Of a DNA stretch of 64,000 bases, positions 22,823 to 55,556 are shown piece by piece. The stretch's first letter is position 1. Each line of letters opens with the position of its first letter. Made by a program: the position numbers and the translations under genes. Origin of the DNA: Bacteroidales bacterium (lineage in GTDB: Bacteria > Bacteroidota > Bacteroidia > Bacteroidales > UBA932); the NCBI GenBank assembly GCA_017428945.1, contig JAFRPW010000027.1, positions 7,202 through 71,201 on the forward strand. Reading direction: 5' to 3'. The notes below the pieces were generated by a model, which saw only the letters and a list, made by a program, of their open reading frames with translations, searched no databases and was not told the DNA's origin.

Positions 22823-24049
22823 CTATTTCCACCATGAGAGTACTGTAGACTCCACGGCATCGGCGGTTTCCTTGCCAACTGCTGTGACAAGGTTGGGGAA
22901 AAAGTCTATACCTGTCTTTTCCTCCAACTGGTCAATGGACATAATATACTCCTTGTAATTGCCTTCGGAGATGTTGGAGGTGTGGGGAAGCAGGAATCCC
23001 GCAGACATATAGCCCTTTGTACCTGTGGCGGCCGACTGGTTTCCACGGTACAGCAGAGCCTTGAAGTAGTAGGTGGGAATCTTTACGGCAAAGCCGCTCT
23101 TTGTTCCGCTTGTGGTTGTGGAATTGTCAAACAGACAGCCTGTAACCACGTATAATGTATCAGATTTGTCCGAGTAATTCCTCACTGCCTGCTCCAGGTT
23201 AGCCCAGATCCCGCAGTTGAAATCATAGTCCTGAGGAGTCATATTGGTAGGGACAAAGGTGGAGATGTTTGCCGATTCCGGTTTAAGCCGGTCTGCCGAC
23301 GGCAACTGATGGCCACGGGTCCAGCCCCCGCCATATGAGCCCTGGACGATATTGGGCTGTATGGAAACGGGCAGAAGGGCATCGTAACCCCAGGTGTTGG
23401 TACGGCTTCCGCTTCCCCTCAGAGACTTGTTCAAGGGATATGCGACCCATAGGGACATGTGCTCATCGTAATCCCAGTAGCAGGACCAGTTGCGCGTGCC
23501 GTCGACACCTTTGGAAGAGTATTTTCCGCCCGTCATGCTATGGACAAGCACATCGCGCCCGTCTCCGGCCTTGCATGCCGGCAACTCAAGCCAGTCCATA
23601 GGTGCCACATCATAACCATATTGTCCGATACTCTGCTGCTGTTCATCCTTCCCCAACTGCTTTATCACCGCTGTTGCTCTGACGCCGCCGGATGTGGCAA
23701 GGGCCAGGGTAACGCTGCGTGAAGCTCCGGGGTTCTCCCCATAGCGGAAACGGATATCGCCCTTGGAGCCGGTGCCTTGGGCGGGCTCAAGCGTAACCCA
23801 CGGTTCCACATCGGCAGGGTATTCCGTTTGCAGTGTCCACTCTCCGGAAGCGGTTATGGACACAAACATGCTGCCAGCCCCTGGTTCAAGGGTGGTTTTT
23901 CTGGGGACGACTGTTTCCTCCACCATATCATCGCCACCGCTTCCGGAGGTGCCATAAAGCAGCTCCGGAAGCTTGTCGCAGGAAGATATGCAGGCTGCCA
24001 TAGCCAATACCATGGCAGCCTTTAGGAGTTTAGACATGAACTTACTCAA
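22823..24049 (-). CDS. Lipoprotein: BACON domain plus DNA/RNA non-specific (NucA/EndoG-type) endonuclease
   Basis: Lipobox CISSC, BACON-like ITASGEWT..W, His-Me motif TRGHQLPSADR, NMTPQ, FNCGIWANLEQAVR, IPTYYFKALL. Confidence 0.9.
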   Translation of the reverse strand: MSKFMSKLLKAAMVLAMAACISSCDKLPELLYGTSGSGGDDMVEETVVPRKTTLEPGAGSMFVSITASGEWTLQTEYPADVEPWVTLEPAQGTGSKGDIRFRYGENPGASRSVTLALATSGGVRATAVIKQLGKDEQQQSIGQYGYDVAPMDWLELPACKAGDGRDVLVHSMTGGKYSSKGVDGTRNWSCYWDYDEHMSLWVAYPLNKSLRGSGSRTNTWGYDALLPVSIQPNIVQGSYGGGWTRGHQLPSADRLKPESANISTFVPTNMTPQDYDFNCGIWANLEQAVRNYSDKSDTLYVVTGCLFDNSTTTSGTKSGFAVKIPTYYFKALLYRGNQSAATGTKGYMSAGFLLPHTSNISEGNYKEYIMSIDQLEEKTGIDFFPNLVTAVGKETADAVESTVLSWWK

Positions 24050-26519
24050 AGAAGACTTCTACATTTACCAGACGGGTCTGGCCGGCAGCAGCCTGCAGAA
24101 TGACGGTGCTTGCACTTCCTTCCCATTTGATGGTCTCGTCAGATTTGGATGCAACTGCAGTACCTTCTGTGCCCTCAACTCCTGTCAAGTCAAGAATATA
24201 CTGGCCACTGTTCAGATTGTTAGCCTTGAAGGAAAGGGCCTTGATGGTCTTTCCTGAAGGGGCTTCAATGAAGAACACTGCGCTCTTATATACCCTCATG
24301 CTGTACTGGTCAGGAGTGACAGGATTTGAAGTGCTCTTATACTTGTAAGTGGCCACCTTGAATCCCTCAACAGTTGCAGAGAAGCCATTCTTGAGCACAT
24401 CGCCGCCGTTATCCTCTGCAAAAGAAGTCTCGTTGTTGAGTGGTATGACTATGGAACTGGCATTGCCGGAACTTGCCTTGGCCTGGACTATCATAACCTC
24501 GATTTCCTTGGTTGCCACATCTGCATCTGTCTTCACGATGAGATTATAGGTCACGACATTCTCCGTATCAGTATTGGCGGGGAAATTTGCAGTGATCTCA
24601 CCGGCGCCCTGACCTGAAGCGGGAGACAGAGTCAAAGCGTTAATGGCAGTACTGGCCGTCCAGGCAACGTTGCCGGTAACCTTGATCACCGCGCTGGTTG
24701 CACTTGCAGAAACGCTGATCTGTGCCTTCTCAACGCCGAATACGGGACCCTGGTCAATGCTGGTCTGGCCGTTGAGGCTGTAGATATAAGCCTCCTTGCT
24801 GGAGGTTTCGGGAGTTCCGCCATAGTTGGTGAGCTTACCGCAGATAATCACTTCGTCACCTACGGCGACCTGTGCATCTCCGTCTACCCAGGCACGATTG
24901 CCAAGATAGTAGACGCTATATACCTGGAACTGGGTTCCGTTGGTAGAGCCGTCTTCGGAGATGTAGAACGTAGCAGTGCCATACTGGGCGCTGAAGGTGT
25001 ATTTTACAGAGGAGATTTTACCCTTTACGTACACATCATCAGTCTTGCCCTTGTCTTCAAGTGCGGAAGCCACGTCGGAAGCGGCCTTGGGGTTATAAGG
25101 ACTCTCAAGTGTGCCGTTGCCGGTTGCAGTCTCATCCTGGGTCTGACCTTCGGTGAAGGAAAGAATGTAGGCATTTACGACCTCGTGCTGCTGTTTGTTA
25201 GCATAGTAATCATACTTGCCGGCCAGCGTTACGGTACCGCCGTCCTTAATCTTGGAGCTCCACTCTGACTTGTTGTCAACGCTATACACGTAGATAAGAC
25301 CGGTTGCGTCAGTGAGGTCGAAGCTGCAGTAATTGGCGTTAAAGCCGGAGACCTTACCGGAAAGCTTGTAATAGTTATCTTTATCGGCAGCAGAAATAAA
25401 CTCTGCGACAGTCTTGGCGGGAACATTGTTGTAGTCGATTTCCTCGCCGCCCTGTACGTCAAGGATGTAGCCGTTTACCATTTCAGGAGTACCGTTGTAA
25501 TCCTTGAATACGCCAGCAATGGTGACGATGCTACCCTTCTTGACCTTATCCTGAACGGCAGACCAGTTGGATACACCGTAAATCTTAACTGTACCGGTAG
25601 CATCCTTGAGGTCGAAGTTGCCATACTGGGTATTGATACTGCCGGTAACTTCACCGGTAAGCTTATAAGGAGTCTTGGTATCTGCAAGTGCAATGAATTC
25701 AGCAACGGTCTTGGCCTCAGCCTTGGTGTAGTCTACCTCCTGACCACCAGTTGCCACGGTTTCACCATTGAGACTGTAGAGATAAGAACCCTTCTGTACT
25801 GTCTCCGGAGTGTTGCCCATATAGTTCATGACCTCGCCATAAACCACGGCTACATCACCTACAGCAATCTGGGTGTTGCCTTCCTGCCACTTCTTGTTTT
25901 CAAGATAGTAAACCCTGTAAGCAACAAACTTGGGGTCGGTAGCGTTTCCGTCATCAGTAATGGTGAAATTGCCATTGCCGTATTCCGCTCCGAAGGGCTC
26001 CTTTATGGAAGCGATCTTGCCCTTTACATAGAAAGGACCAACCTTATCGTACTCAGTAGTGCTGGTCCATGTGAGCCTTGATACAACTTCAGCAATCTGG
26101 GCTACATTGTAAGGCTTTTCCTTGGAGCCGTCGCCTTCTTCAGCAACGAATGTGCCCTGGCTGCCCTTCTGCTTTACCTTCAGGGTTGCCTTGACCATGC
26201 CGCCGCCGGCTGCAAAGACGATATCAATCTCGCGGTCAAAGCCGGTATTCTCTTCAACGGACACGGAAACGGTCTGAGGATCCTTGGATGCATTGCCGCT
26301 TTCCTGACCAAGGGCTACCCACTTGCCGGCAAGGTCTGTGGTTACGCTCCAGTTAAGGGTTGCATTCAGAGTAATTGTCTGGGAGCCCTCACCTGCCTCA
26401 AAATTGAGTTCGGTAGGATTGATATTGATCATGGGGGCACCAAGTTCCTCAATCTCCTCGCAGGCTGTGAACGCAAAAGCGCCCGCAATCACTGCCATGA
26501 ATAAATGTCTCAGTTTCAT
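24042..26519 (-). CDS. Surface lipoprotein: BACON domains plus four OB-fold-like repeats
   Basis: Lipobox AFTAC followed by acidic EEIEE. Repeats of (Y/V)KG(K/E)..QYG..F.(I/L).D..G....Y.V. Start reassigned to MKLRHLF. Confidence 0.75.
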   Translation of the reverse strand: MKLRHLFMAVIAGAFAFTACEEIEELGAPMININPTELNFEAGEGSQTITLNATLNWSVTTDLAGKWVALGQESGNASKDPQTVSVSVEENTGFDREIDIVFAAGGGMVKATLKVKQKGSQGTFVAEEGDGSKEKPYNVAQIAEVVSRLTWTSTTEYDKVGPFYVKGKIASIKEPFGAEYGNGNFTITDDGNATDPKFVAYRVYYLENKKWQEGNTQIAVGDVAVVYGEVMNYMGNTPETVQKGSYLYSLNGETVATGGQEVDYTKAEAKTVAEFIALADTKTPYKLTGEVTGSINTQYGNFDLKDATGTVKIYGVSNWSAVQDKVKKGSIVTIAGVFKDYNGTPEMVNGYILDVQGGEEIDYNNVPAKTVAEFISAADKDNYYKLSGKVSGFNANYCSFDLTDATGLIYVYSVDNKSEWSSKIKDGGTVTLAGKYDYYANKQQHEVVNAYILSFTEGQTQDETATGNGTLESPYNPKAASDVASALEDKGKTDDVYVKGKISSVKYTFSAQYGTATFYISEDGSTNGTQFQVYSVYYLGNRAWVDGDAQVAVGDEVIICGKLTNYGGTPETSSKEAYIYSLNGQTSIDQGPVFGVEKAQISVSASATSAVIKVTGNVAWTASTAINALTLSPASGQGAGEITANFPANTDTENVVTYNLIVKTDADVATKEIEVMIVQAKASSGNASSIVIPLNNETSFAEDNGGDVLKNGFSATVEGFKVATYKYKSTSNPVTPDQYSMRVYKSAVFFIEAPSGKTIKALSFKANNLNSGQYILDLTGVEGTEGTAVASKSDETIKWEGSASTVILQAAAGQTRLVNVEVFFE

Positions 26520-26593
26520 AGTATAGATTAGTGTTGATTGTTTCTGATTCACAAATATAACAATCTTTTTCGGTTATTCAATTTTTACATAGT

Positions 26594-26622
26594 AAAAACG
26601 GCTCCCGGAGTCCGGGAGCCGT
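26594..26622 (-). terminator. Intrinsic terminator inside the TBDT/nuclease cluster
   Basis: 11-bp perfect stem acggctcccgg/ccgggagccgt with a 3-nt loop, followed by a T-run on the minus strand. Confidence 0.75.
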
Positions 26623-26644
26623 AGAAAGAGAGTTCTAAAGACTC

Positions 26645-29600
26645 TTACTTCAGAGCAATTTTTTCCGCGTTGGTAGGATAGTACTGAACAGCCGTCTTAA
26701 CGGTTATTTCAGCTCCTGATGCGGGTGAACCAAGAGCAGAGCGGGGGACGCTCACCTCGATATAAGCGAAATCTCCAGAGATGGTTCCGCCGACTTTCAG
26801 CTTGGCACCGTCAACCTTGGTACCCACAGGATTGTCAATCCAGCTTGCAGGGTCCTCTCCGGCAGTAATTACCGCATTGGCAGCAGACGTCCAAGGATAG
26901 AAATACGCAAGAGCCTCGAGGCCGGCATTGTTTCCGGCTGCACCATGCTCTCCCTGACTGCCAGTAGAGGCATCGTTGTCAAGATTGAAGCCGATGTAGA
27001 ACGATGAAGAACCGTCGGTCTTGATCTTCTCTGCTGTCATCTTGTAATAGAAGTACACGTTGCTGGCATCGGAAGTGGCCTTCCACTCAACTATACGGTT
27101 GTTAACGCCTTCAAACTTGGTCTCAACAGCATCCCAGTCGCCAAGGTCACCGTCGATGGTGATGCCCTTGGGGGCGACAGCTATCTCCTCAGTGGAGGCC
27201 TGGATGCCGAAGATGATGGCCCTCTTGCCGTTGTTGGTTCCTTCGTAGGTCTCAACAGTGACAGGGGTATCCTGAGGAAGGGCTCCGCCAAGGTTGAAGG
27301 CATACTTGTCACTGTCAGTAACAGTGATGGTATAAGGGCTGCTGCCCGTTGCGCCATCATTTGCTGCGATGTCCACAGGTATTACGTTGCTGCCCAGCGT
27401 GAGCTTGAGGGATGCCGGAGCGCCTTTCCAACCTACGGCATAGAAAGATACGGACTTGGTGCCGGCAGGAAGAGTGACAGTTGCGCTGCCAAACTTGGAG
27501 CTGGTGCCAAGTTTGAGGGTAAAGACGTCCGCAGTACCGTTAACGGTGGCTACGCCGTCAGTGTAGGCACTGCTCACGGTGACTATTCCGTCCTTTACAT
27601 TGGTGTCATACTCACCAAGTTCTGCCGGAGGATTGGAAGATCCGTTTGCTGCGCCGATGGTAGGAGTGTCGAAGATGACAAACTTATCGGCACCGTCGGT
27701 TTCGCGGCCCCAGGACTTGCCGTCCTCGATAGTAACGATATTGGTCAGGTTATCAACCTCATCCACAACTGCATCTCCCTTCTTGAGGGCGATCTTGAAG
27801 CCCTTGGTGCCGCTTAGGCCGAACACAGGGCCGTTGGCGGCATCGGTCTGCTTGCAAGTGAATACTGCATAACCCTTTGCAGGAACCTTTGCGAGGGCGG
27901 CCGGGATAGAGAAGGTATCCTTCTCGCCTTCTTCGCCGTCGTTCTTGAGGATTATCCAACCGGTCATATCCACTTCTGCGTCGGTGGCATTATAGATCTC
28001 GATCTGCTTGTTCTGGCAGTCGAACTCGTTGAGATACAGCTCGGGAACCACCTCTGCAGGAGTAGCCTCGGTTACGCCGTTGAGGCTGTAGACATAGGCC
28101 TTCTTGCTGGAGGTCTCGTAAGTGGACTTGTAGAGAGTGAGCTGGCCCTTGATGATGACCTCGTCACCGACGGCCACCTGGGCATTGCCTTCTTCCCAAG
28201 GCTTGTTCTCAAGGAAGTAGGCGCTGTAAACCTCGAAGTCCTTGGCGGGCTCTGTGGTGCTCTTCTTGTCGTCAGATACACCGTAGGCGGTGCCATCGTC
28301 AGAAATCCAGAAGGTACCGGTACCATAATTGGCGCTGAACTCATAGAGGACCGCGGAAACCTTACCCTTGACGGCTACGTCAGGGAGAGTGAGCGTAGCA
28401 CCGGCATCACTGGCTGCCTTGACGGCGGCCTGGGTGTCGTCGATGAACTTCTCAGCACCGGCAATGTTGAAAGGATAGTCAACGCTGCCAAGACCGTTGG
28501 CATCGGTGGTTGCCCAGTTGATGCTGTAGATCTTTGCTTTCTTGCTGGCGGTCTCGTATGTGGTGACGTCGTTCTTGGTATATGCAGTGACTGCACCGAA
28601 GAGGATGACTTCGTCGCCTACGGAATAGTTGCCCTTTATGTCTGCTGCAGCGACGGGAGCGTCAAGGCTACCGCCGAGCCAGTACACGCTGTAAGCTTCG
28701 AAGTCCTTGTTGAGGTCATCGTTGAAGACGCCGTCGTCAGAAATCCAGAAGGTGCCGGTGTTGTAGCTTTCGCTGTAGGTATAGACAGCCTTGGAGACGA
28801 TACCCTTAATGTATACGTTACCGGCTGCACTATTATTCTTGATGGCCTCGATAACCTGAGCTACTGTGTAAGGATTGTCAAGAGTACCAACTGCGGAATA
28901 TCCGCCCTGCTTGAGGGTAAGGGTAATATCCTTGGCACCGGCGCTCTTCACCGTGAAGGTAGCCTCGCGGGCCTCGGTCTCAGTATTGGCATCGAAGGAA
29001 ACCCTGATCTCAGTGGCATCCTTGGCGCCGGACTTGGTGTAGTCCTTGATCCAGGAAGCATCGGTGCTTACGGTCCAGCCCTCGGTGAGGTTCTTGGGAG
29101 CGATGGTGAAGGTGGCTTCGGTCTCGGAAGCGGCTACAACCTTCTCGGGCTCCTTGCAGGAGATGGTGGGAGCGGTGTTGGCATCCAGCTTGACGAGGTA
29201 AGCGGCATTCTGGCTGGTTTCTGCCTGGCCGCCATAATTCATAAGGACACCATAGATTACAACGTTGTCACCTTCGCTGATGTTCTGCTTGGTGGGATCG
29301 TCATACTTGACATTGTCGAAGTAGTAGATACGGTAGGCTTCGAAAGTCTTTTCGCCCTCGGCGTCGCCCATCCAGAAGGTGGCGTTGCCATACTGGGTGC
29401 CGAATTCTTCGACAATAGCGGTGATGATACCCTTGACATAGTACTTCTTGGGCGTTGTGGCCTTGTCTGCCAACTTGCCGCAGAGCACTACAGCCTCTGC
29501 ACAGGTAAGAGGATCATCCTCGGTGAGGCCGTGAGGGTCACCGGTCTGAACTACGGTAATGAGCTTTTCCAGTTTGCCGGCCTGGAGGGAAACCTCTCCG

Positions 29601-29881
29601 GTACGGTCTTCGTCGGATGCTCCGACGGTAATGGTAACCTTTGTGGTACCGCTGCCGGTGGCAGGGGTGAATGCGATCCAGTCGGCGGAGGAAGTGGCCT
29701 TCCATGTGATGTCGCCGCTGTTGACCTCAACGGTTGCGCTGCCGCCTTCAGAACCAACTGCCACGATGCTCTTGTCAAGGTCTATGGCAAGGTTGTAGGA
29801 TGCCACGGGCTCTTCCTCTATACAGGAGGCAAAGAGCGAGACACCTGCGAGCGCAGAAAGAATATATCTGAACAGTTTCAT
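26645..29881 (-). CDS. Large surface lipoprotein: BACON, three OB-fold-like repeats, lamin-tail-like domain, C-terminal beta-sandwich
   Basis: Lipobox LFASC followed by IEEE, three G(T/S)..(N/D)P..YVKG..YG..TFW(I/M)..D repeats, LYLNEF..IEIYN..VDMTGW (LTD-like), ITIDGDLGDW domain. Confidence 0.72.
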   Translation of the reverse strand: MKLFRYILSALAGVSLFASCIEEEPVASYNLAIDLDKSIVAVGSEGGSATVEVNSGDITWKATSSADWIAFTPATGSGTTKVTITVGASDEDRTGEVSLQAGKLEKLITVVQTGDPHGLTEDDPLTCAEAVVLCGKLADKATTPKKYYVKGIITAIVEEFGTQYGNATFWMGDAEGEKTFEAYRIYYFDNVKYDDPTKQNISEGDNVVIYGVLMNYGGQAETSQNAAYLVKLDANTAPTISCKEPEKVVAASETEATFTIAPKNLTEGWTVSTDASWIKDYTKSGAKDATEIRVSFDANTETEAREATFTVKSAGAKDITLTLKQGGYSAVGTLDNPYTVAQVIEAIKNNSAAGNVYIKGIVSKAVYTYSESYNTGTFWISDDGVFNDDLNKDFEAYSVYWLGGSLDAPVAAADIKGNYSVGDEVILFGAVTAYTKNDVTTYETASKKAKIYSINWATTDANGLGSVDYPFNIAGAEKFIDDTQAAVKAASDAGATLTLPDVAVKGKVSAVLYEFSANYGTGTFWISDDGTAYGVSDDKKSTTEPAKDFEVYSAYFLENKPWEEGNAQVAVGDEVIIKGQLTLYKSTYETSSKKAYVYSLNGVTEATPAEVVPELYLNEFDCQNKQIEIYNATDAEVDMTGWIILKNDGEEGEKDTFSIPAALAKVPAKGYAVFTCKQTDAANGPVFGLSGTKGFKIALKKGDAVVDEVDNLTNIVTIEDGKSWGRETDGADKFVIFDTPTIGAANGSSNPPAELGEYDTNVKDGIVTVSSAYTDGVATVNGTADVFTLKLGTSSKFGSATVTLPAGTKSVSFYAVGWKGAPASLKLTLGSNVIPVDIAANDGATGSSPYTITVTDSDKYAFNLGGALPQDTPVTVETYEGTNNGKRAIIFGIQASTEEIAVAPKGITIDGDLGDWDAVETKFEGVNNRIVEWKATSDASNVYFYYKMTAEKIKTDGSSSFYIGFNLDNDASTGSQGEHGAAGNNAGLEALAYFYPWTSAANAVITAGEDPASWIDNPVGTKVDGAKLKVGGTISGDFAYIEVSVPRSALGSPASGAEITVKTAVQYYPTNAEKIALK

Positions 29882-45310: not shown

Positions 45311-46222
45311 ATGGCAACGATACAAGAGGAACTGTTCCAGCGTTCCAAACCATTTTTCCACTATTGTTCCCTGCCATTCGAGGATGCTCTTCTATACGAT
45401 GACGACAAACAGATGGGCGCAGTCCTGAACTTCATTGCTGTGGCGCTGATGCATGTCCCGGGCTGCAGGCTTCTGGCTTTTGCAGTGATGTCAAACCACA
45501 TTCACCTGGTGGTGGAGGGAGAACGTCCTTACTGCGACGTCTTTATAGGAAAGCTTACCGAGTTGCTGGATAATTATTATCGATATAACGGGAAGGCCCG
45601 TCTTAGCGGGCACATCGAATTTGAGGCAATCCACATTGACTCTTTAAGGATGCTTCGGGCAGAGATAATTTACACTATCCGCAACCCGTTCGTCGTAAGG
45701 ACCGATGTGAATGTATTTGCTTGCCCTTCCACCAGCGGATATCTGTACTTCAACCCTATGCTTAAGCGTGAAGGCATACCCGCTTCGAACCTCCGGGGAA
45801 GGGCCCTGAGGGACTTCCTGCATACACGCAACGTGATTGCGCTGACTGACAGGTTCTATGTAAAAGACGGCGCTGCGCAGCCCTGGAGTTTCGTGGATTA
45901 TGAAAGAGCAATGTCGTTCTTCCCCAGCGCCAGGGACTTCGTACTAGGGACCATAAGAAATGTCGAAGGACAGGTAGAGATAGCCAACAGGCACGGAGAA
46001 CCAGTCTCTCTTGCCGACCAGGAAGTTCTTTCACTGGCATATCGTCTGTGCGGAGAACGATATGGTAATGTGAAACTCTCAAACCTTGGCACCACGGAAA
46101 GAATGCAGCTTGGCCTGAAGTTGAAAAACGAGTACCGCGTCTCCAACGGCCAGATTGCCCGTACTTTGGGGCTGTCCCTCAAGGACGTGAACGCCATGTT
46201 CCCCCTTTCCGCCAAGATTTAA
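45311..46222 (+). mobile_element. HUH/Y1 tyrosine transposase, REP-associated (RAYT/TnpA-REP-like), with a C-terminal HTH
   Basis: FAVMSNHIHLVV (HUH), IIYTIRNP (catalytic Tyr, YxxxNP), STSGY, C-terminal VSNGQIARTLGLS helix-turn-helix. Flanked by family A hairpins on both sides; TAAATTTG -7 box at 45290-45297. Confidence 0.82.
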
Positions 46223-49523: not shown

Positions 49524-50030
49524 ATGAAAGCAAGAATCAAACATATTTACGAGATCATTGCCGGGGCAATACTCTCGCTTCTGGGGTTCAACGGATGTGA
49601 TGAGAATATCTTTTTAGGCCCCGTGGAGTACGGGATGCCGCACGCAACCTTTGAGGTAAAAGGCACAGTCAAGGCAGAAGATACCGGAGAGTCCGTCAAG
49701 GGCATAAAAGTCAAGTTGCGCCATTACACAGAAGGGATGGAAGACGAGAACGGCAATCCGCGTTACACAGAGTTGGAGATGCAGTCGGACCAGGACGGCA
49801 AGGTGGACGGCTCCTTCGGGGGGTTATGGCCTTATTACGACGATCTTCAGATCACCTTCGAGGATGTTGACGGAGGGGAAAACGGCGGCTGGTTCGCTCC
49901 GGACACAATTAAAGTTTCAGATTTGAATATAACCCTGGAAGAGGACAAGAAGTCAACCTGGAACAAGGGTACATATCATATATCCTTTGACGAAAAACTC
50001 AAAAGGGACTATACACAGCCGGTAGACTAG
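49524..50030 (+). CDS. Radical SAM-associated putative lipoprotein (TIGR04134-like), copy 1
   Basis: Lipobox LGFNGC25 and VEYGMPHATFEVKGTV; abuts the radical SAM gene. Confidence 0.78.
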   Translation: MKARIKHIYEIIAGAILSLLGFNGCDENIFLGPVEYGMPHATFEVKGTVKAEDTGESVKGIKVKLRHYTEGMEDENGNPRYTELEMQSDQDGKVDGSFGGLWPYYDDLQITFEDVDGGENGGWFAPDTIKVSDLNITLEEDKKSTWNKGTYHISFDEKLKRDYTQPVD

Positions 50031-50031
50031 T

Positions 50032-51102
50032 ATGCTTCCGCTCAGGCAGAAAATAGGTCTGGAGCTTACCAAACCCATCATAGACCGCGTGATAAGGGAA
50101 CATCCCCTTACCACGCTGTTTTGGGAATGTACCCTTCGCTGCAACTTAAGGTGCAGGCACTGCGGGAGCGACTGCAAGGTGACATCGGAGCTCCGGGACA
50201 TGCCGCTGGAAGACTTCCTTCCAGTTCTCAGGAGCATAGCCCGGGAAACTGATCCCCACAATGTAATGATAAACGTGACCGGCGGCGAGCCACTTGTGCG
50301 CCAGGATCTGGAAAAGTGCGGCAAGGCCTTCTACGACCTGGAATTCCCCTGGGGCATTGTCACAAACGGCCGCGGGCTCACCCCGCAGCGCTACAAGAGC
50401 CTCCTTGCAAGCGGCCTAAGGGCCGTTACGGTGAGCCTGGACGGCATTGGTGACACCCACGACTGGATGCGAGGCGTTCCCGGAACATTCCCCCTTGCTG
50501 TAAAAGCAATAAGCATGGTTGCAGCCTCCGGAGAAGTGGAGTTCGATGTTGTAACCTGCGTAAACAAGCGAAGCTACAAGGAACTGGAGCAGATCAAGGA
50601 ACTCCTCATAAGCATCGGCGTCAAGGAGTGGCGTCTTTTCACCGTTTTCCCCGTGGGCCGTGCGGCAAATGACCCGGAACTGAAGCTTTCGGGCGATGAA
50701 TTCCGCGGCACCATGGAGTTTATCCGCCGCACCAACAAGGAAGGCCGCATAACCGCCAGCTACGGCTGCGAGGGCTTCCTTGGCAAGTACGAGGGCGAGG
50801 TCCGTGACCACTTCTTCCTCTGCAACGCCGGCATCACCACCGGCTCCGTAATGGCCGACGGTTCCATTGCCGCCTGCCCCAGCATAAGGGCCGATTACAG
50901 CCAGGGCAACATCTACCGCGGAGACGATTTCATGGACGTCTGGAACAACCGCTACCAGATTTACCGTGACCGCACCTGGATGAAAAAGGACGAGTGTGCC
51001 CGCTGCCGCTACTGGCGCTACTGCCGGGGCAACGGAATGCACCTCCGCGACGCCGACGGGAAGCTTCTTTTCTGTCATCTGCACCGTCTGCAGGAAATAT
51101 GA
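50032..51102 (+). CDS. Radical SAM/SPASM enzyme of the rSAM-lipoprotein system (TIGR04133-like)
   Basis: CTLRCNLRCRHC (Cx3Cx2C), TGGEP, SPASM cysteines CNAG..DGSIAACPS..CARCRYWRYCRG. Confidence 0.85.
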   Translation: MLPLRQKIGLELTKPIIDRVIREHPLTTLFWECTLRCNLRCRHCGSDCKVTSELRDMPLEDFLPVLRSIARETDPHNVMINVTGGEPLVRQDLEKCGKAFYDLEFPWGIVTNGRGLTPQRYKSLLASGLRAVTVSLDGIGDTHDWMRGVPGTFPLAVKAISMVAASGEVEFDVVTCVNKRSYKELEQIKELLISIGVKEWRLFTVFPVGRAANDPELKLSGDEFRGTMEFIRRTNKEGRITASYGCEGFLGKYEGEVRDHFFLCNAGITTGSVMADGSIAACPSIRADYSQGNIYRGDDFMDVWNNRYQIYRDRTWMKKDECARCRYWRYCRGNGMHLRDADGKLLFCHLHRLQEI

Positions 51103-51134
51103 GAATGCCCCTCAGACGGTACTGAGAGGCACTC
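51103..51134. terminator. Imperfect hairpin between convergent genes, possible bidirectional terminator
   Basis: 51103-51115 pairs with 51122-51134 at 11 of 13 positions; no clear U-tract. Confidence 0.35.
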
Positions 51135-51163
51135 GGGTTAACAATATTGATACGGTCAGATGA

Positions 51164-51670
51164 TTATTCTTCCTTGTCTGCGAGTTTGAGCTTTGCGGCG
51201 AAGGAGATGGTGTAGTCTCCTTCGTGCCAGCTGCCCTTCTTGTCCTTTTCAAAGTCTATTGACAGGTCCTCTTCCGAGAGCACCACGCCCTGAAACTCTC
51301 CGCCGTTTGCGGCGCCGTCAATGTCCTCAAGGGTGATTGTTATTTCCTTGGGCTCCGTGGACCAGTCATTGGCGCGGGCGTTCACTTTGCCGTCCTTGTC
51401 CGTGAGGAACTCGTTGTCCTCAATCTGGTAGTACTGCTTTACGCCGTTGTCGTCCGTGTACGCAAGGCGGCTGTAGGATACCTTGATTCCGGGAATGGGA
51501 CTGCCGTCCTCCGCGGTGACCTCTCCAATTATCTTGTAATTGGCGTGAGGCATGCCGTATTCGTCCCTGGGCTCGATGATATTGGAGATCTCACTGCAGC
51601 CGCCAAGCCCCAGAAAAGTGAGGATGGCGCCTACAATAAGCTCATAGATATGACGGATTCTTGCAATCAT
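51164..51670 (-). CDS. Radical SAM-associated putative lipoprotein, copy 2
   Basis: Lipobox LGLGGC25 and DEYGMPHANYKIIGEV; clear paralog of 49524-50030. Confidence 0.78.
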   Translation of the reverse strand: MIARIRHIYELIVGAILTFLGLGGCSEISNIIEPRDEYGMPHANYKIIGEVTAEDGSPIPGIKVSYSRLAYTDDNGVKQYYQIEDNEFLTDKDGKVNARANDWSTEPKEITITLEDIDGAANGGEFQGVVLSEEDLSIDFEKDKKGSWHEGDYTISFAAKLKLADKEE

Positions 51671-53571: not shown

Positions 53572-54483
53572 ATGGCAGAAGATCCCCTCGAGAGAATTGA
53601 GCGCCAGGAGCGCGAACGCAAAGCCAACGGCGGTCTCAAGACCACCCTTTGGATACTAATAGTAATTGCACTGGCCCTTGCAGGAGTGCTGGGCTACATG
53701 CTTTACCAGAGAAACAACCTCGTAAACCAGCTTGAAGGAGAAAAGGCAGAGCTTGCACAGCAGATGACAGAGCTCCAGAGCGATTTCGCATCCCTCAGCA
53801 GCGACTACGAGTCCATCAACCACCAGCTGGACACCTCCCGCGAGCAGGTTGCCCTGCTCATAGACAAGCTTTCCAAGACGGAAGCCACCAACCGTGCAAA
53901 GATCCGTCAGTATGAGAAAGAGCTTGGCACCCTCCGCACCATCATGAAGGGCTACATCGTCCAGATCGATTCCCTGAACACCCTCAACAAGAAGCTCACG
54001 GCCGATGCCGCAGCAGCCCGCAGGGAGGCCGCAGAAAGCCGCCAGCGCAACGAGGAACTCACCGCCCAGGTTACAGAACTCTCCTCAAAGGTCAGTTCCG
54101 GAAAAATCCTCAAGGCCCGCGGAATCAGCCTCCAGGCCATGTACAACAACGACAAGCCCGGAGACCGCCACAGCCGCGTACGCTACATGCTTGCCAACCT
54201 CTCCCTGGTGGAGAATTCCCTGGCAGACCGCGGTCCCGTCCGCGTCTATGTCCGCGTCAAGGATCCCGAAGGCATCCTCCTCATGAACAACGAGTCCACG
54301 GAATTCACCTGCGCAGGCCAGACCCTCCAGGCCACAGCCTCGCGCGAAGTAGACTACGAAGGTCAGGAAGTAGACCTCTCCATCTACATCAACGACACCG
54401 GAGAATTCGTAAAGGGCATCTACACCCTTGAGGTTTACACGGAAAAGAGCCTCCTCGGAGGCGCGGAGTGCATGCTCCGATGA
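53572..54483 (+). CDS. Hypothetical membrane-anchored coiled-coil protein with a C-terminal beta domain
   Basis: Single TM helix (LWILIVIALALAGVLGYML), long heptad region, then a beta-rich tail. Confidence 0.6.
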   Translation: MAEDPLERIERQERERKANGGLKTTLWILIVIALALAGVLGYMLYQRNNLVNQLEGEKAELAQQMTELQSDFASLSSDYESINHQLDTSREQVALLIDKLSKTEATNRAKIRQYEKELGTLRTIMKGYIVQIDSLNTLNKKLTADAAAARREAAESRQRNEELTAQVTELSSKVSSGKILKARGISLQAMYNNDKPGDRHSRVRYMLANLSLVENSLADRGPVRVYVRVKDPEGILLMNNESTEFTCAGQTLQATASREVDYEGQEVDLSIYINDTGEFVKGIYTLEVYTEKSLLGGAECMLR

Positions 54484-55556
54484 TTTACATCCACGTACCT
54501 TTCTGCAGAAGTTTCTGCACCTACTGCGACTTCTATTCGGAGATCGCCACAGACGGCCTCGTGCAAAAATACACAGAGGCCGTCTGTGCTGAAATCCGTG
54601 CCCGGCACAAGGAAATAGACCCTTCACTTCCAACCCTGTACTTTGGTGGCGGCACTCCCTCGCTGCTTCCGCTCCCTTCCCTTACAAAGATTCTCCTCAC
54701 CCTGGCGGAATGCGGCCACGGCGGCCCCTGGGCGGAATTCACCATGGAAGTGAATCCGGAAGACATCGTCATAAAAGGCGTACCGTATGTGAAGAGCCTG
54801 AAAACCTTCGGCGTGGACAGGATAAGCATAGGCATACAATCCTTTGACGATGACCTTCTCCGCTGGATGAACCGCCGCCATACCGCAGACCAGGCCCGCG
54901 AGGCCATAAAGATTGTGCGCGAAGCCGGCATAGAGAATCTGAGCATAGACCTCATCTTCGGCCTTTCAAACCTCTCAGACAGCACCTGGGAGGACACAAT
55001 TGACGAGGCCTTGTCCCTTGGCGTAGACCACATTTCCTGCTACCAGCTTACCGTAGAGGGAGACAACGCCCTTACCCACATGCTGGAAAACGGAGACTAT
55101 ACCGAGGCCTCCGACGAACAGTGCTGGCGCCAGTACTACACCCTTTGCCGCAAGGCAGCGGCCGCAGGGTTCAACCATTACGAGATTTCCAACTTTGCAA
55201 AACCGGGCTTCGAGGCCGTCCACAACGGCGGCTACTGGCAGAGAAAGCCGTACGTGGGCTTTGGCCCCGCCGCCCATTCCTTTACCGGACGCGGCCGCGG
55301 ATGGAACAGCCCCGAGATAGAGAACTACACCCACACGGACGAAGCCTTGAGCGTTGAGGACGAGAAGATAGAGACCCTGATGCTGGCCCTCCGCACGTCA
55401 CGCGGCATAGACGAGGAATTTCTCCGCAGCAACTGCAGCGGCAAAACAATAGATTCGCTGCTGGGAGAACGCGCCCTCGTGAAGGAAGGACGCCGTTACC
55501 GCATCCCGGAAGACCATTTCTTCGTATCCGATGAAATAATAAGAGAACTGGTATGA
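54468..55556 (+). CDS. hemW: Radical SAM heme chaperone HemW (HemN-like)
   Basis: IYIHVPFCRSFCTYCDF, YFGGGTPS, RISIGIQSF, HYEISNFA. The start may be 54480. Confidence 0.88.
   Translation: MHAPMIYIHVPFCRSFCTYCDFYSEIATDGLVQKYTEAVCAEIRARHKEIDPSLPTLYFGGGTPSLLPLPSLTKILLTLAECGHGGPWAEFTMEVNPEDIVIKGVPYVKSLKTFGVDRISIGIQSFDDDLLRWMNRRHTADQAREAIKIVREAGIENLSIDLIFGLSNLSDSTWEDTIDEALSLGVDHISCYQLTVEGDNALTHMLENGDYTEASDEQCWRQYYTLCRKAAAAGFNHYEISNFAKPGFEAVHNGGYWQRKPYVGFGPAAHSFTGRGRGWNSPEIENYTHTDEALSVEDEKIETLMLALRTSRGIDEEFLRSNCSGKTIDSLLGERALVKEGRRYRIPEDHFFVSDEIIRELV

Follow-up and report, generated by a model that had tools for sequence, protein, structure and literature searches.

In a 64,000-nucleotide stretch of a Bacteroidales genome (GCA_017428945.1, contig JAFRPW010000027.1, positions 7,202 to 71,201; hereafter the window, with positions counted from its first letter), we analyzed a locus at 49524-51670 that encodes a radical SAM/SPASM enzyme and two paralogous lipoproteins, which are its predicted substrates. 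The first gene, lipA (49524-50030, plus strand), codes for a 168-aa lipoprotein precursor of family TIGR04134 and lies directly 5' of the gene for the 356-aa TIGR04133 enzyme (50032-51102, plus strand); a single nucleotide separates the lipA stop codon TAG from the enzyme ATG. The second TIGR04134 gene, lipB (51164-51670, minus strand), also encodes 168 aa and is convergent to the enzyme gene at a distance of 61 nt. Between the convergent stop codons lies a hairpin with a 13-bp stem (51103-51134), which is terminator-like on the minus strand, that is, on the lipB side, with a T-rich tail after the stem. The three open reading frames (ORFs) are identical to the public gene calls on the source contig, which derives from a ruminant-gut metagenome, and the coordinates of all features were checked by translation. 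This agrees with a preceding sequence-only reading of the same DNA, which had described three genes, 168-aa paralogs and a convergent lipB. One error-free metatranscriptome contig of 478 nt (49608-50085) spans the lipA/enzyme junction, and metatranscriptome contigs cover the lipA, enzyme and lipB genes, with DNA carry-over in the libraries being possible in both cases.

On the NCBIfam models, the enzyme scored 556.2 bits for TIGR04133 (cutoff 425; full-length match over residues 4-354), and lipA and lipB reached 92 and 75.9 bits, respectively, for TIGR04134 (cutoff 39.8). The only Pfam match on the enzyme was Radical_SAM (PF04055); SPASM (PF13186) was matched on its homologs. Enzyme score, partner scores, gene adjacency and the radical SAM and SPASM cysteines all assign the locus to the TIGR04133/TIGR04134 system. 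As the sequence-only reading had stated, this pairing is an already annotated orphan, its two models being hypothetical equivalogs in NCBIfam. To our knowledge, the TIGR04133 family has been annotated as an orphan for more than ten years. We found no paper on the system in a search outside of which lay Scott et al. 2022 (Chem), where prior coverage is possible, and a combined search for SPASM, lipoprotein, Bacteroid, spliceotide and tyramine returned nothing on it. The single literature mention of TIGR04134 proved to be a typo for the C-terminal domain model of the type IX secretion system and does not refer to this family. According to PMC10849128, Scott et al. looked for YG-rich neighbours of all radical SAM-SPASM proteins, and 27 pairs were confirmed.

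Three sets of sequences were used for comparison: 77 close lipoprotein homologs, 80 further genomic loci anchored on the enzyme, and 2883 clusters retrieved at E <= 1e-3 by searching 1.84 billion representatives with a profile. Column conservation was determined on 66 representatives sharing <60% identity. At 90% identity, the enzyme family forms more than 7000 clusters. In nearly all of the 80 loci, the enzyme has a partner next to it; in most of the few exceptions, the enzyme is located at or near a contig end. A TIGR04133/lipoprotein pair is also present on pTS1 of the spirochaete Treponema saccharophilum (L086:2125-3601), with an enzyme 46% identical to that of the window and a partner in which YG directly follows the cysteine (LTSCYGMPENYY). 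This pair adjoins an Mpi-family DNA invertase, which suggests horizontal transfer beyond Bacteroidota.

The partners show a basic n-region, a hydrophobic helix (residues 2-19 in the AlphaFold2 (AF2) model of lipA) and a cysteine after L-L-G-F-x-x, and are predicted to be lipoproteins processed by signal peptidase II (SPII). The lipA signal peptide MKARIKHIYEIIAGAILSLLGFNGC (49524-49598, plus strand) ends in lipobox Cys25, includes the L-L-G-F-x-x-C signature (49578-49598, plus strand) and is the proposed enzyme-docking helix; the lipB signal peptide MIARIRHIYELIVGAILTFLGLGGC (51596-51670, minus strand) likewise ends in lipobox Cys25. A second conserved motif lies ~11 residues after the lipobox Cys. 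In lipA it reads E35-Y36-G37-M-P39-H-A-T-F43 (49626-49652, plus strand), with Tyr36-Gly37 (49629-49634) as the predicted modification site, and in lipB E37-Y38-G39-M-P41-H-A-N-Y45 (51536-51562, minus strand), with Tyr38-Gly39 at 51554-51559. Translation confirmed the two common elements that had been noted from the sequence, namely the signal-peptide pattern M.ARI.HIYE.I.GAIL..LG..GC25 and EYGMPHA (E35-A41 in lipA, E37-A43 in lipB).

The AF2 model of lipA (mean predicted local distance difference test (pLDDT) of 82) consists of helix 2-19, a tether at residues 24-36 with pLDDT <50, and a beta-sandwich at residues 41-159 (49644-50000, plus strand), and Tyr36 is located in the low-confidence tether just ahead of strand 1. 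The sandwich is transthyretin/prealbumin-like, with Foldseek template modelling scores of ~0.45 to transthyretin-like and intradiol-dioxygenase cores and with PF13620 matched on homologs. As a clue to function the fold was discarded, since this generic transthyretin-like sandwich gave no lead. Overall, lipA and lipB are 44% identical. The earlier statement that they diverge outside of the two common elements was overstated: the mature domains are still ~40% identical, and an E-D-x-D-G-x3-G-G-x-F block is invariant in both, along with W146 and G149. In lipA, the block reads E-D-V-D-G-x3-G-G-x-F (residues 113-124; 49860-49895, plus strand); from its residues it looks like a metal, Ca2+ or ligand-binding loop. 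Acidic residues follow the lipobox Cys in 72% of family members, which is compatible with the surface-export signal of Bacteroidota and not diagnostic of it.

Over its full length, the protein is most conserved at Tyr36 (98%), Pro39 (95%) and Gly37 (92%). YGxP was found in 137 of the 141 clusters at 50% identity; the chance expectation is ~0.011 YGxP per 90 aa, compared to its presence in ~97% of family members. The sequence-only reading had made its proposal dependent on conservation of YG among the family lipoproteins, and this conservation is evident. Of the four clusters lacking YGxP, two are fragments, and the others are a chimera and a decayed paralog (P0094). In the latter, a lipB-type homolog, the lipobox Cys has been lost and Tyr has been replaced by Phe (NFGKPQASF), and this joint loss fits a functional coupling of both features. 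The extended motif is X (Glu 45%, Met 35%, Leu 12%), Tyr, Gly (rarely Ala or Ser), x, Pro, x, Ala or Val, Asp or Glu, followed by Tyr or Phe at position +7 in 87% of cases; position +2 is the most variable of all (Thr, Val, Pro, Ser, Ala, Gln, Met, Cys). Hence, of the EYGMPHA originally noted, the x-Y-G-x-P core is conserved together with an aromatic residue at +7, whereas His and Ala are not conserved family-wide. The elements common to lipA and lipB might in principle be remnants of a recent duplication, given that some identical blocks are expected at 44% identity. However, the same columns are kept in 2883 clusters at 50% identity from Bacteroidales and Treponema, as well as in partners with unrelated mature regions, which refutes this explanation and leaves it a negligible probability.

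Comparison of the partners showed that the motif occurs as a free-standing module. Classic partners of ~150 aa consist of an SPII signal and the beta-sandwich, and two-domain partners of ~280 aa have a separate EYGxPHAxY unit ahead of each sandwich (e.g. at residues 37 and 169); some partners possess an additional unit at the extreme C-terminus. Since internal and C-terminal copies are located up to ~170 residues from the N-terminus, the motif would have to be recognised in its own right. In mini-lipoproteins of 55-95 aa, the domain is wholly absent and the motif is kept, sometimes at the extreme C-terminus. Their variants include a coiled coil ending in VVYGPRPTGY, the sequences LLYAVPNVPY and LMYGVAPRNY, CYGPAPRNY directly after the lipobox, and four tandem genes with VYGPPP; tandem motif repeats within a mini-lipoprotein occur as well, e.g. 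MYGPPLAMYGPPMYGPP. The mature part is thus interchangeable between a coiled coil, a disordered acidic tail and one or two domains, with signature and motif being retained.

The signature in the signal peptide is under constraint of its own. Among the representatives, Leu20, Gly21 and Phe22 of L-L-G-F-x-x-C are conserved to 91%, 97% and 79%, respectively, and the signature is found in about three quarters of the partners but is practically absent from ~79 further lipoprotein-like ORFs of the 80 loci and the window. The extra constraint suspected in the sequence-only reading was thereby substantiated. Partners have this conserved, partner-specific N-terminal helix, and none of the 80 loci contains a gene resembling the Y protein of known spliceases. 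For binary spliceases, it has been proposed that an N-terminal alpha-helix of the precursor docks on the enzyme at the site of the Y protein and activates it (PMC11414181). By analogy, the signal peptide may act as a leader-like docking or activating element, an idea that we regard as evenly poised.

All-against-all clustering of the neighbouring ORFs in the 80 loci revealed the enzyme and the lipoprotein family as the sole recurring components. No gene for a PqqD-like protein or RiPP (peptide made on the ribosome and modified after translation) recognition element (RRE), no protease gene and no transporter gene recurs around the enzyme, and the loci do not match a canonical RiPP cluster with a leader peptidase and/or exporter; presumably, the general Sec/SPII pathway takes over leader removal and export. 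Synteny was rejected as a further functional clue, the flanking housekeeping genes being conserved only in close relatives. The enzyme clades follow the class of the partner, as the YA, coiled-coil VYGPRP and CYGPAP classes each cluster, and a single metagenome-assembled genome (RUG209) contains two paralogous systems with different partner types. From these data, we consider it highly probable that the lipoprotein is the substrate of the enzyme and, with only slightly less assurance, likely that Tyr-Gly is the site of modification.

Could the enzyme instead act on a small molecule or cofactor, like its AhbD/NirJ-like relatives, with the lipoprotein being an envelope partner linked to it by function and YGxP serving as a structural, sorting or ligand-binding element? 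The AhbD, NirJ2 and TIGR04053 models score nearly as high as those of peptide maturases, the motif abuts strand 1 of the sandwich in most members, and the enzyme, at 56-83% identity across Phocaeicola, Prevotella, Alistipes, Muribaculaceae, Paludibacteraceae and Rikenellaceae in the 80 loci, varies unusually little for a RiPP maturase. However, a cytoplasmic enzyme and an exported lipoprotein meet only before export, the motif persists in the absence of the domain and in tandem repeats, and the mature part changes while signature and motif stay. Moreover, no other conserved pathway genes occur in the loci, and the paralog P0094 has lost Cys and Tyr together. This alternative is therefore improbable in our estimation.

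The enzyme has no signal peptide and requires S-adenosylmethionine and a reductant, which argues for action in the cytoplasm on the unfolded precursor, and such an enzyme-substrate pair is very likely. The proposal in the sequence-only reading that a folded, lipid-anchored protein is modified had the order of events wrong. The radical SAM core starts at about residue 30 and leaves no room for an RRE domain, which the enzyme lacks. No natural lipoprotein-enzyme fusions were found among the best 120 of the more than 7000 homologs. In an AF2 model of an in-silico fusion of the enzyme with lipA, pLDDT fell below 50 both in the tether and in the regions that bind the clusters; as the MAFFT multiple sequence alignment had misplaced most lipoprotein rows, this model is uninformative and does not speak against docking.

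Regarding the chemistry at Tyr-Gly, the sequence-only reading had suggested a splicease of the PlpX type. We compared the enzyme with TIGR04103, the PlpX family, which we take to be IPR026482. This identity is given in part in PMC11002830. According to Morinaka 2018, plpX homologs occur only in cyanobacteria, proteobacteria and actinobacteria (PMC5995677). Comparison sequences were obtained by tblastn of annotated plasmids. One of them, a Nostoc locus, has a type I layout with a Nif11 precursor, a TIGR04103 enzyme (853 bits) and, at the position of PlpY, a 71-aa ORF, and its enzyme aligns end-to-end with that of the window (27% identity, E = 4e-35). In a bootstrapped neighbour-joining tree of 18 SPASM enzymes, three groups were resolved: TIGR04133 (97%), a PlpX-like clade of TIGR04103, the GDL/DUF1843-associated enzymes and an Agathobacter enzyme (85%), and a group of MftC, NirJ, TIGR04053 and TIGR04347 (96%). 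Members of TIGR04133 match PlpX-like enzymes best (103-142 bits compared to <=101 for the rest) and, reciprocally, the best out-of-clade match of the Nostoc and Agathobacter enzymes is TIGR04133 (119-142 bits compared to <=114). With hidden Markov models (HMMs), the model that scores best outside their own clade is TIGR04133 for both the Agathobacter and the Aureibacter enzyme. The TIGR04133 and PlpX-like clades are reciprocal nearest families, by a modest margin.

The substrates resemble each other as well. Proven splice sites are MYG and LYG (PMC11626197; PMC9811515), and the minimal splice tag of PlpA2 is GPIRPLYGLPI (PMC10533398). The core of the Nostoc precursor is RGSIA-LYGLPPELF. A further 80 TIGR04103 loci contributed 114 GG-leader precursors, and these contained 162 unique YG contexts. 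Met accounts for 39% and Leu for 34% of X, and the dominant core class is YGVV/YGVI. Cores with Pro at +3 include EYGMP (twice in one core), CYGLPPRDY, MYGLPADRF and QAYGLPPDLF. In the lipoprotein family, X is Met or Leu at 47% and Glu at 45% of the sites. The likeness to splicease substrates that had been noticed from the sequence was upheld by the PlpA2 tag and by EYGMP, CYGLPPRDY, LYGLPPELF and MYGLPADRF beside TIGR04103 enzymes, and the Bacteroidales module lies, by its residues, inside the known splicease substrate space.

Two side observations concern the enzymes closest to the family. On the Agathobacter rectalis plasmid NZ_CP143948.1 (L088:2309-2416), an unannotated 35-aa ORF (MFNLEELSLEFVKISELKTSKNLFGPVMYGTGVRM, with ...FGPVMYGTGVRM) lies directly 5' of a PlpX-like radical SAM gene and a gene for a major facilitator superfamily transporter. 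This ORF is a candidate for an unannotated precursor of a spliceotide in a Firmicute of the human gut. Furthermore, DUF1843 ("GDL motif") peptides encoded beside TIGR03913-type enzymes (L089:1784-2239; L090:644-1357) all start with x-Y-[G/A], namely RPYGPAM, QPYGAG, VLYAAG and PMYAAS, and these enzymes are 47-48% identical to a true TIGR04103 member. No literature linking DUF1843/TIGR03913 to splicing was found.

Several of our results weigh against tyramine splicing. The enzyme is not a member of TIGR04103, for which it scored 122.2 bits (cutoff 725), and TIGR04133 forms a separate deep clade in the tree, so that the assignment as a PlpX-type splicease failed both by family and by phylogeny. 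In the HMM comparison, AhbD ties with TIGR04133 for the Nostoc enzyme, and TIGR04053 ties with TIGR03913 and TIGR04103 for that of the window. The cysteine block C33-x3-C37-x3-C41-x2-C44-x3-C48 (50128-50175, plus strand) contains the canonical CX3CX2C (C37/C41/C44), flanked by the family-specific invariant C33 and C48; a third extra invariant cysteine is C176, and these residues could mean a different chemistry. The SPASM region (50767-51075, plus strand) contains seven invariant cysteines (246, 264, 282, 322, 325, 331, 348), and the fourth Cys of the SPASM motif CX2CX5CX3C is replaced family-wide by Gly within an invariant G-N-G-M-H-L-R. All PlpX-like enzymes retain the canonical SPASM cysteines, and the Nostoc enzyme lacks C33 and C48. 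The altered SPASM motif and the extra cysteines imply, as read from the alignment, a differently ligated auxiliary cluster. On the substrate side, Ala or Ser takes the place of Gly at ~8% of the sites, Glu at X is rare in cyanobacterial cores (3 of 162), and RcsX left a DYG site unspliced (PMC11626197). Pro at +3 and an aromatic residue at +7 occur in just 20% and 13%, respectively, of the 162 TIGR04103 cores, and their near-invariance in the Bacteroidales family is not explained by known splicease rules. An aromatic residue at +7 was accordingly rejected as a hallmark shared with spliceases.

These points lend some weight to a different radical chemistry by the same pair at the same site. Examples are a C-C or C-O cross-link that joins a nearby residue to the ring or C-beta of Tyr (cyclophane-like or with the aromatic residue at +7), beta-hydroxylation, desaturation or epimerisation, and oxidation of the Gly C-alpha leading to backbone cleavage that frees the domain from its lipid anchor. 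The family is distinct, with its seven-cysteine SPASM region and additional cysteines, Pro at +3 (95%) and the aromatic residue at +7 (87%) hint at a second partner of a reactive or structural kind, and SPASM enzymes catalyse many cross-links, as seen among the NCBIfam neighbours and in PMC11002830. However, variation is greatest at +2, the attachment point of cyclophanes, where Ala and Pro are found as well; +7 alternates between Tyr and Phe and is absent from several upstream repeat units; mini-lipoproteins have no second invariant nucleophile or side chain; and the nearest enzyme relatives all adjoin x-Y-G or x-Y-A peptides. On balance, a different chemistry is possible, if rather unlikely. 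Two specific candidates were rejected, a PQQ-like Glu-Tyr cross-link since X is Met or Leu at about half of the sites, and thioether chemistry since the lipobox Cys is the only Cys of lipA. The features of a maturase for triceptides (three-residue cyclophanes) were not found either, with +2 being variable and no space for an RRE. By analogy with known spliceases, tyramine splicing is the best single chemical guess, with a chance that comes close to even.

Taken together, the best explanation of the locus is a binary enzyme-substrate module for modification of Tyr-Gly before export by tyramine splicing, and we give this explanation as a whole an equal chance of being right or wrong. In this model, lipA and lipB would be made as precursors, and the enzyme would bind the unfolded chain in the cytoplasm prior to Sec export, recognising the signal-peptide helix that ends in L-L-G-F-x-x-C as well as the motif itself. 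It would then modify the Tyr-Gly of the x-Y-G-x-P-x-x-x-aromatic unit in the flexible tether by excising tyramine (C8H9NO) at X-Tyr-Gly. The modified chain would subsequently be exported, lipidated at Cys25 and cleaved, resulting in an electrophilic ketoamide on a stalk of ~10 residues beside the membrane. Ketoamides of spliceotides inhibit Ser and Cys proteases (PMC11626197); this leads to the functional guess that the ketoamide might serve as a tethered reversible inhibitor of such proteases, which is speculative and, in our view, unlikely. We are likewise doubtful, if slightly less so, about the broad proposal of Bacteroidales-wide tyramine splicing of pre-lipoproteins, with the signal peptide as leader and ketoamide lipoproteins and mini-lipoproteins of gut and rumen Bacteroidales as tethered inhibitors or electrophilic handles.

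Among known systems, the type I spliceases PlpXY and PcpXY, which act on Nif11/NHLP precursors, resemble the module in that the enzyme is encoded beside its substrate, X-Tyr-Gly lies in an unstructured stretch with X often being Met or Leu, the motif is repeatable, and some natural cores contain x-Y-G-x-P. Unlike these, TIGR04133 loci contain no PlpY/RRE gene, leader protease or exporter; in place of a GG-leader peptide, the predicted substrate is a Sec/SPII lipoprotein of 55-290 aa; and Pro at +3 and the aromatic residue at +7 are near-invariant, with Glu being common at X. The binary (type II) spliceases RhaX/RhaA, RcsX and RasX also work as two components without a Y protein. Their leader is removed by a RiPP protease and the product is released, whereas here the helix is a predicted lipoprotein signal peptide that would be removed by signal peptidase II and the product is predicted to be membrane-anchored.

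The nearest non-family relatives by BLAST are the TIGR03913 maturases and the Agathobacter radical SAM enzyme (103-142 bits), and we found no literature on their function. Like TIGR04133, they neighbour x-Y-[G/A] sequences such as RPYGPAM, QPYGAG, VLYAAG and PVMYGTG, but instead of lipoproteins they have small cytoplasmic peptides or helical DUF1843 domains as substrates. The maturase anSME (TIGR03942), prominent in Bacteroides, is likewise a radical SAM/SPASM enzyme without an RRE that acts in the cytoplasm before export on one residue in a short motif of a Sec-signal protein, and the profile of the window enzyme aligns full-length to the anSME structures 4K36 and 4K37 (45 bits). In contrast to TIGR04133, it forms formylglycine at C/S-x-P/A-x-R in sulfatases and has a full eight-cysteine SPASM domain; TIGR03942 was not among the best 25 of 66 families matched by the enzyme, and the partners lack C/S-x-P/A-x-R. 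MftC, too, is a radical SAM/SPASM enzyme whose target is a Tyr in a ribosomal peptide, with similarity over the full length (108 bits to TIGR03962), but it depends on the chaperone MftB and on a Val-Tyr at the C-terminus whose carboxylate is free, and falls into a different clade (96% bootstrap). In the Protein Data Bank, no close structure was found by sequence or profile and no splicease by sequence; full-length SPASM matches were SuiB, anSME and PqqE at 41-49 bits.

The hypothesis is sharply testable, as it concerns one residue pair and predicts one mass shift, and the family is large and well conserved in Bacteroides/Phocaeicola, Prevotella, Alistipes, Muribaculaceae and relatives. If splicing is true, backbone splicing would extend beyond cyanobacterial and proteobacterial peptides to exported, lipid-anchored proteins of gut commensals, and beta-amino-acid proteins would for the first time be not a secondary metabolite but a core, housekeeping-like trait in a major lineage of commensals. 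It would also set a precedent for a Sec/SPII signal peptide as recognition element of a maturase, imply cell-surface ketoamide warheads with relevance to host and microbial protease biology, and provide x-Y-G-x-P-x-x-x-aromatic as a compact splice module for the engineering of full-length proteins. Should the chemistry differ, a new SPASM reaction on a Tyr-Gly unit would be no less interesting.

The convergent orientation of lipB is peculiar to the window, as 81 of 85 partners in the 80 other loci are co-directional with the enzyme. An ortholog of lipB that is 55% identical (P0067) is co-directional in a relative. In relative L082, an inserted gene (L082:2323-3240), which encodes a 305-aa transposase-like protein and is 63% identical to the window ORF at 45311-46222 (plus strand), lies between the enzyme gene and a co-directional lipB-type gene. 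The window ORF encodes 303 aa and has no Pfam match, but it contains an SNHIHLV motif resembling HUH/Y1 transposases. Judged from these sequences, a mobile element has probably rearranged the locus, and an HUH/Y1-like insertion as in the relative may explain the inverted orientation of lipB. The lipA-type gene of L082 (L082:181-651) starts at a GTG that was missed by the public gene caller; this cuts off the signal peptide, so that the protein appears to begin with MYGPMPAPEYG. It contains three YG units, IYGPD, MYGPMP and EYGVRV. Mis-called GTG starts of this kind may hide family members in databases.

Elsewhere in the window, neither tRNA genes nor Rfam families at the gathering threshold were found over the whole 64 kb. 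A second, unrelated radical SAM gene (54468-55556, plus strand), whose sole Pfam match is Radical_SAM, reads as HemW/HemN-like by sequence. It overlaps by 16 nt with the end of a 303-aa ORF (53572-54483, plus strand), the public product of which matches DUF8429/DUF8428, and no link of the genes at 53572-55556 to the lipoprotein system is apparent. Three consecutive large ORFs of 404, 825 and 1078 aa at 22823-29881 (minus strand) have lipoprotein-type signal peptides. None of them contains the LGF-x-x-C signature or YGxP near the Cys, and they possibly constitute a cluster for surface proteins or one resembling a polysaccharide utilization locus.

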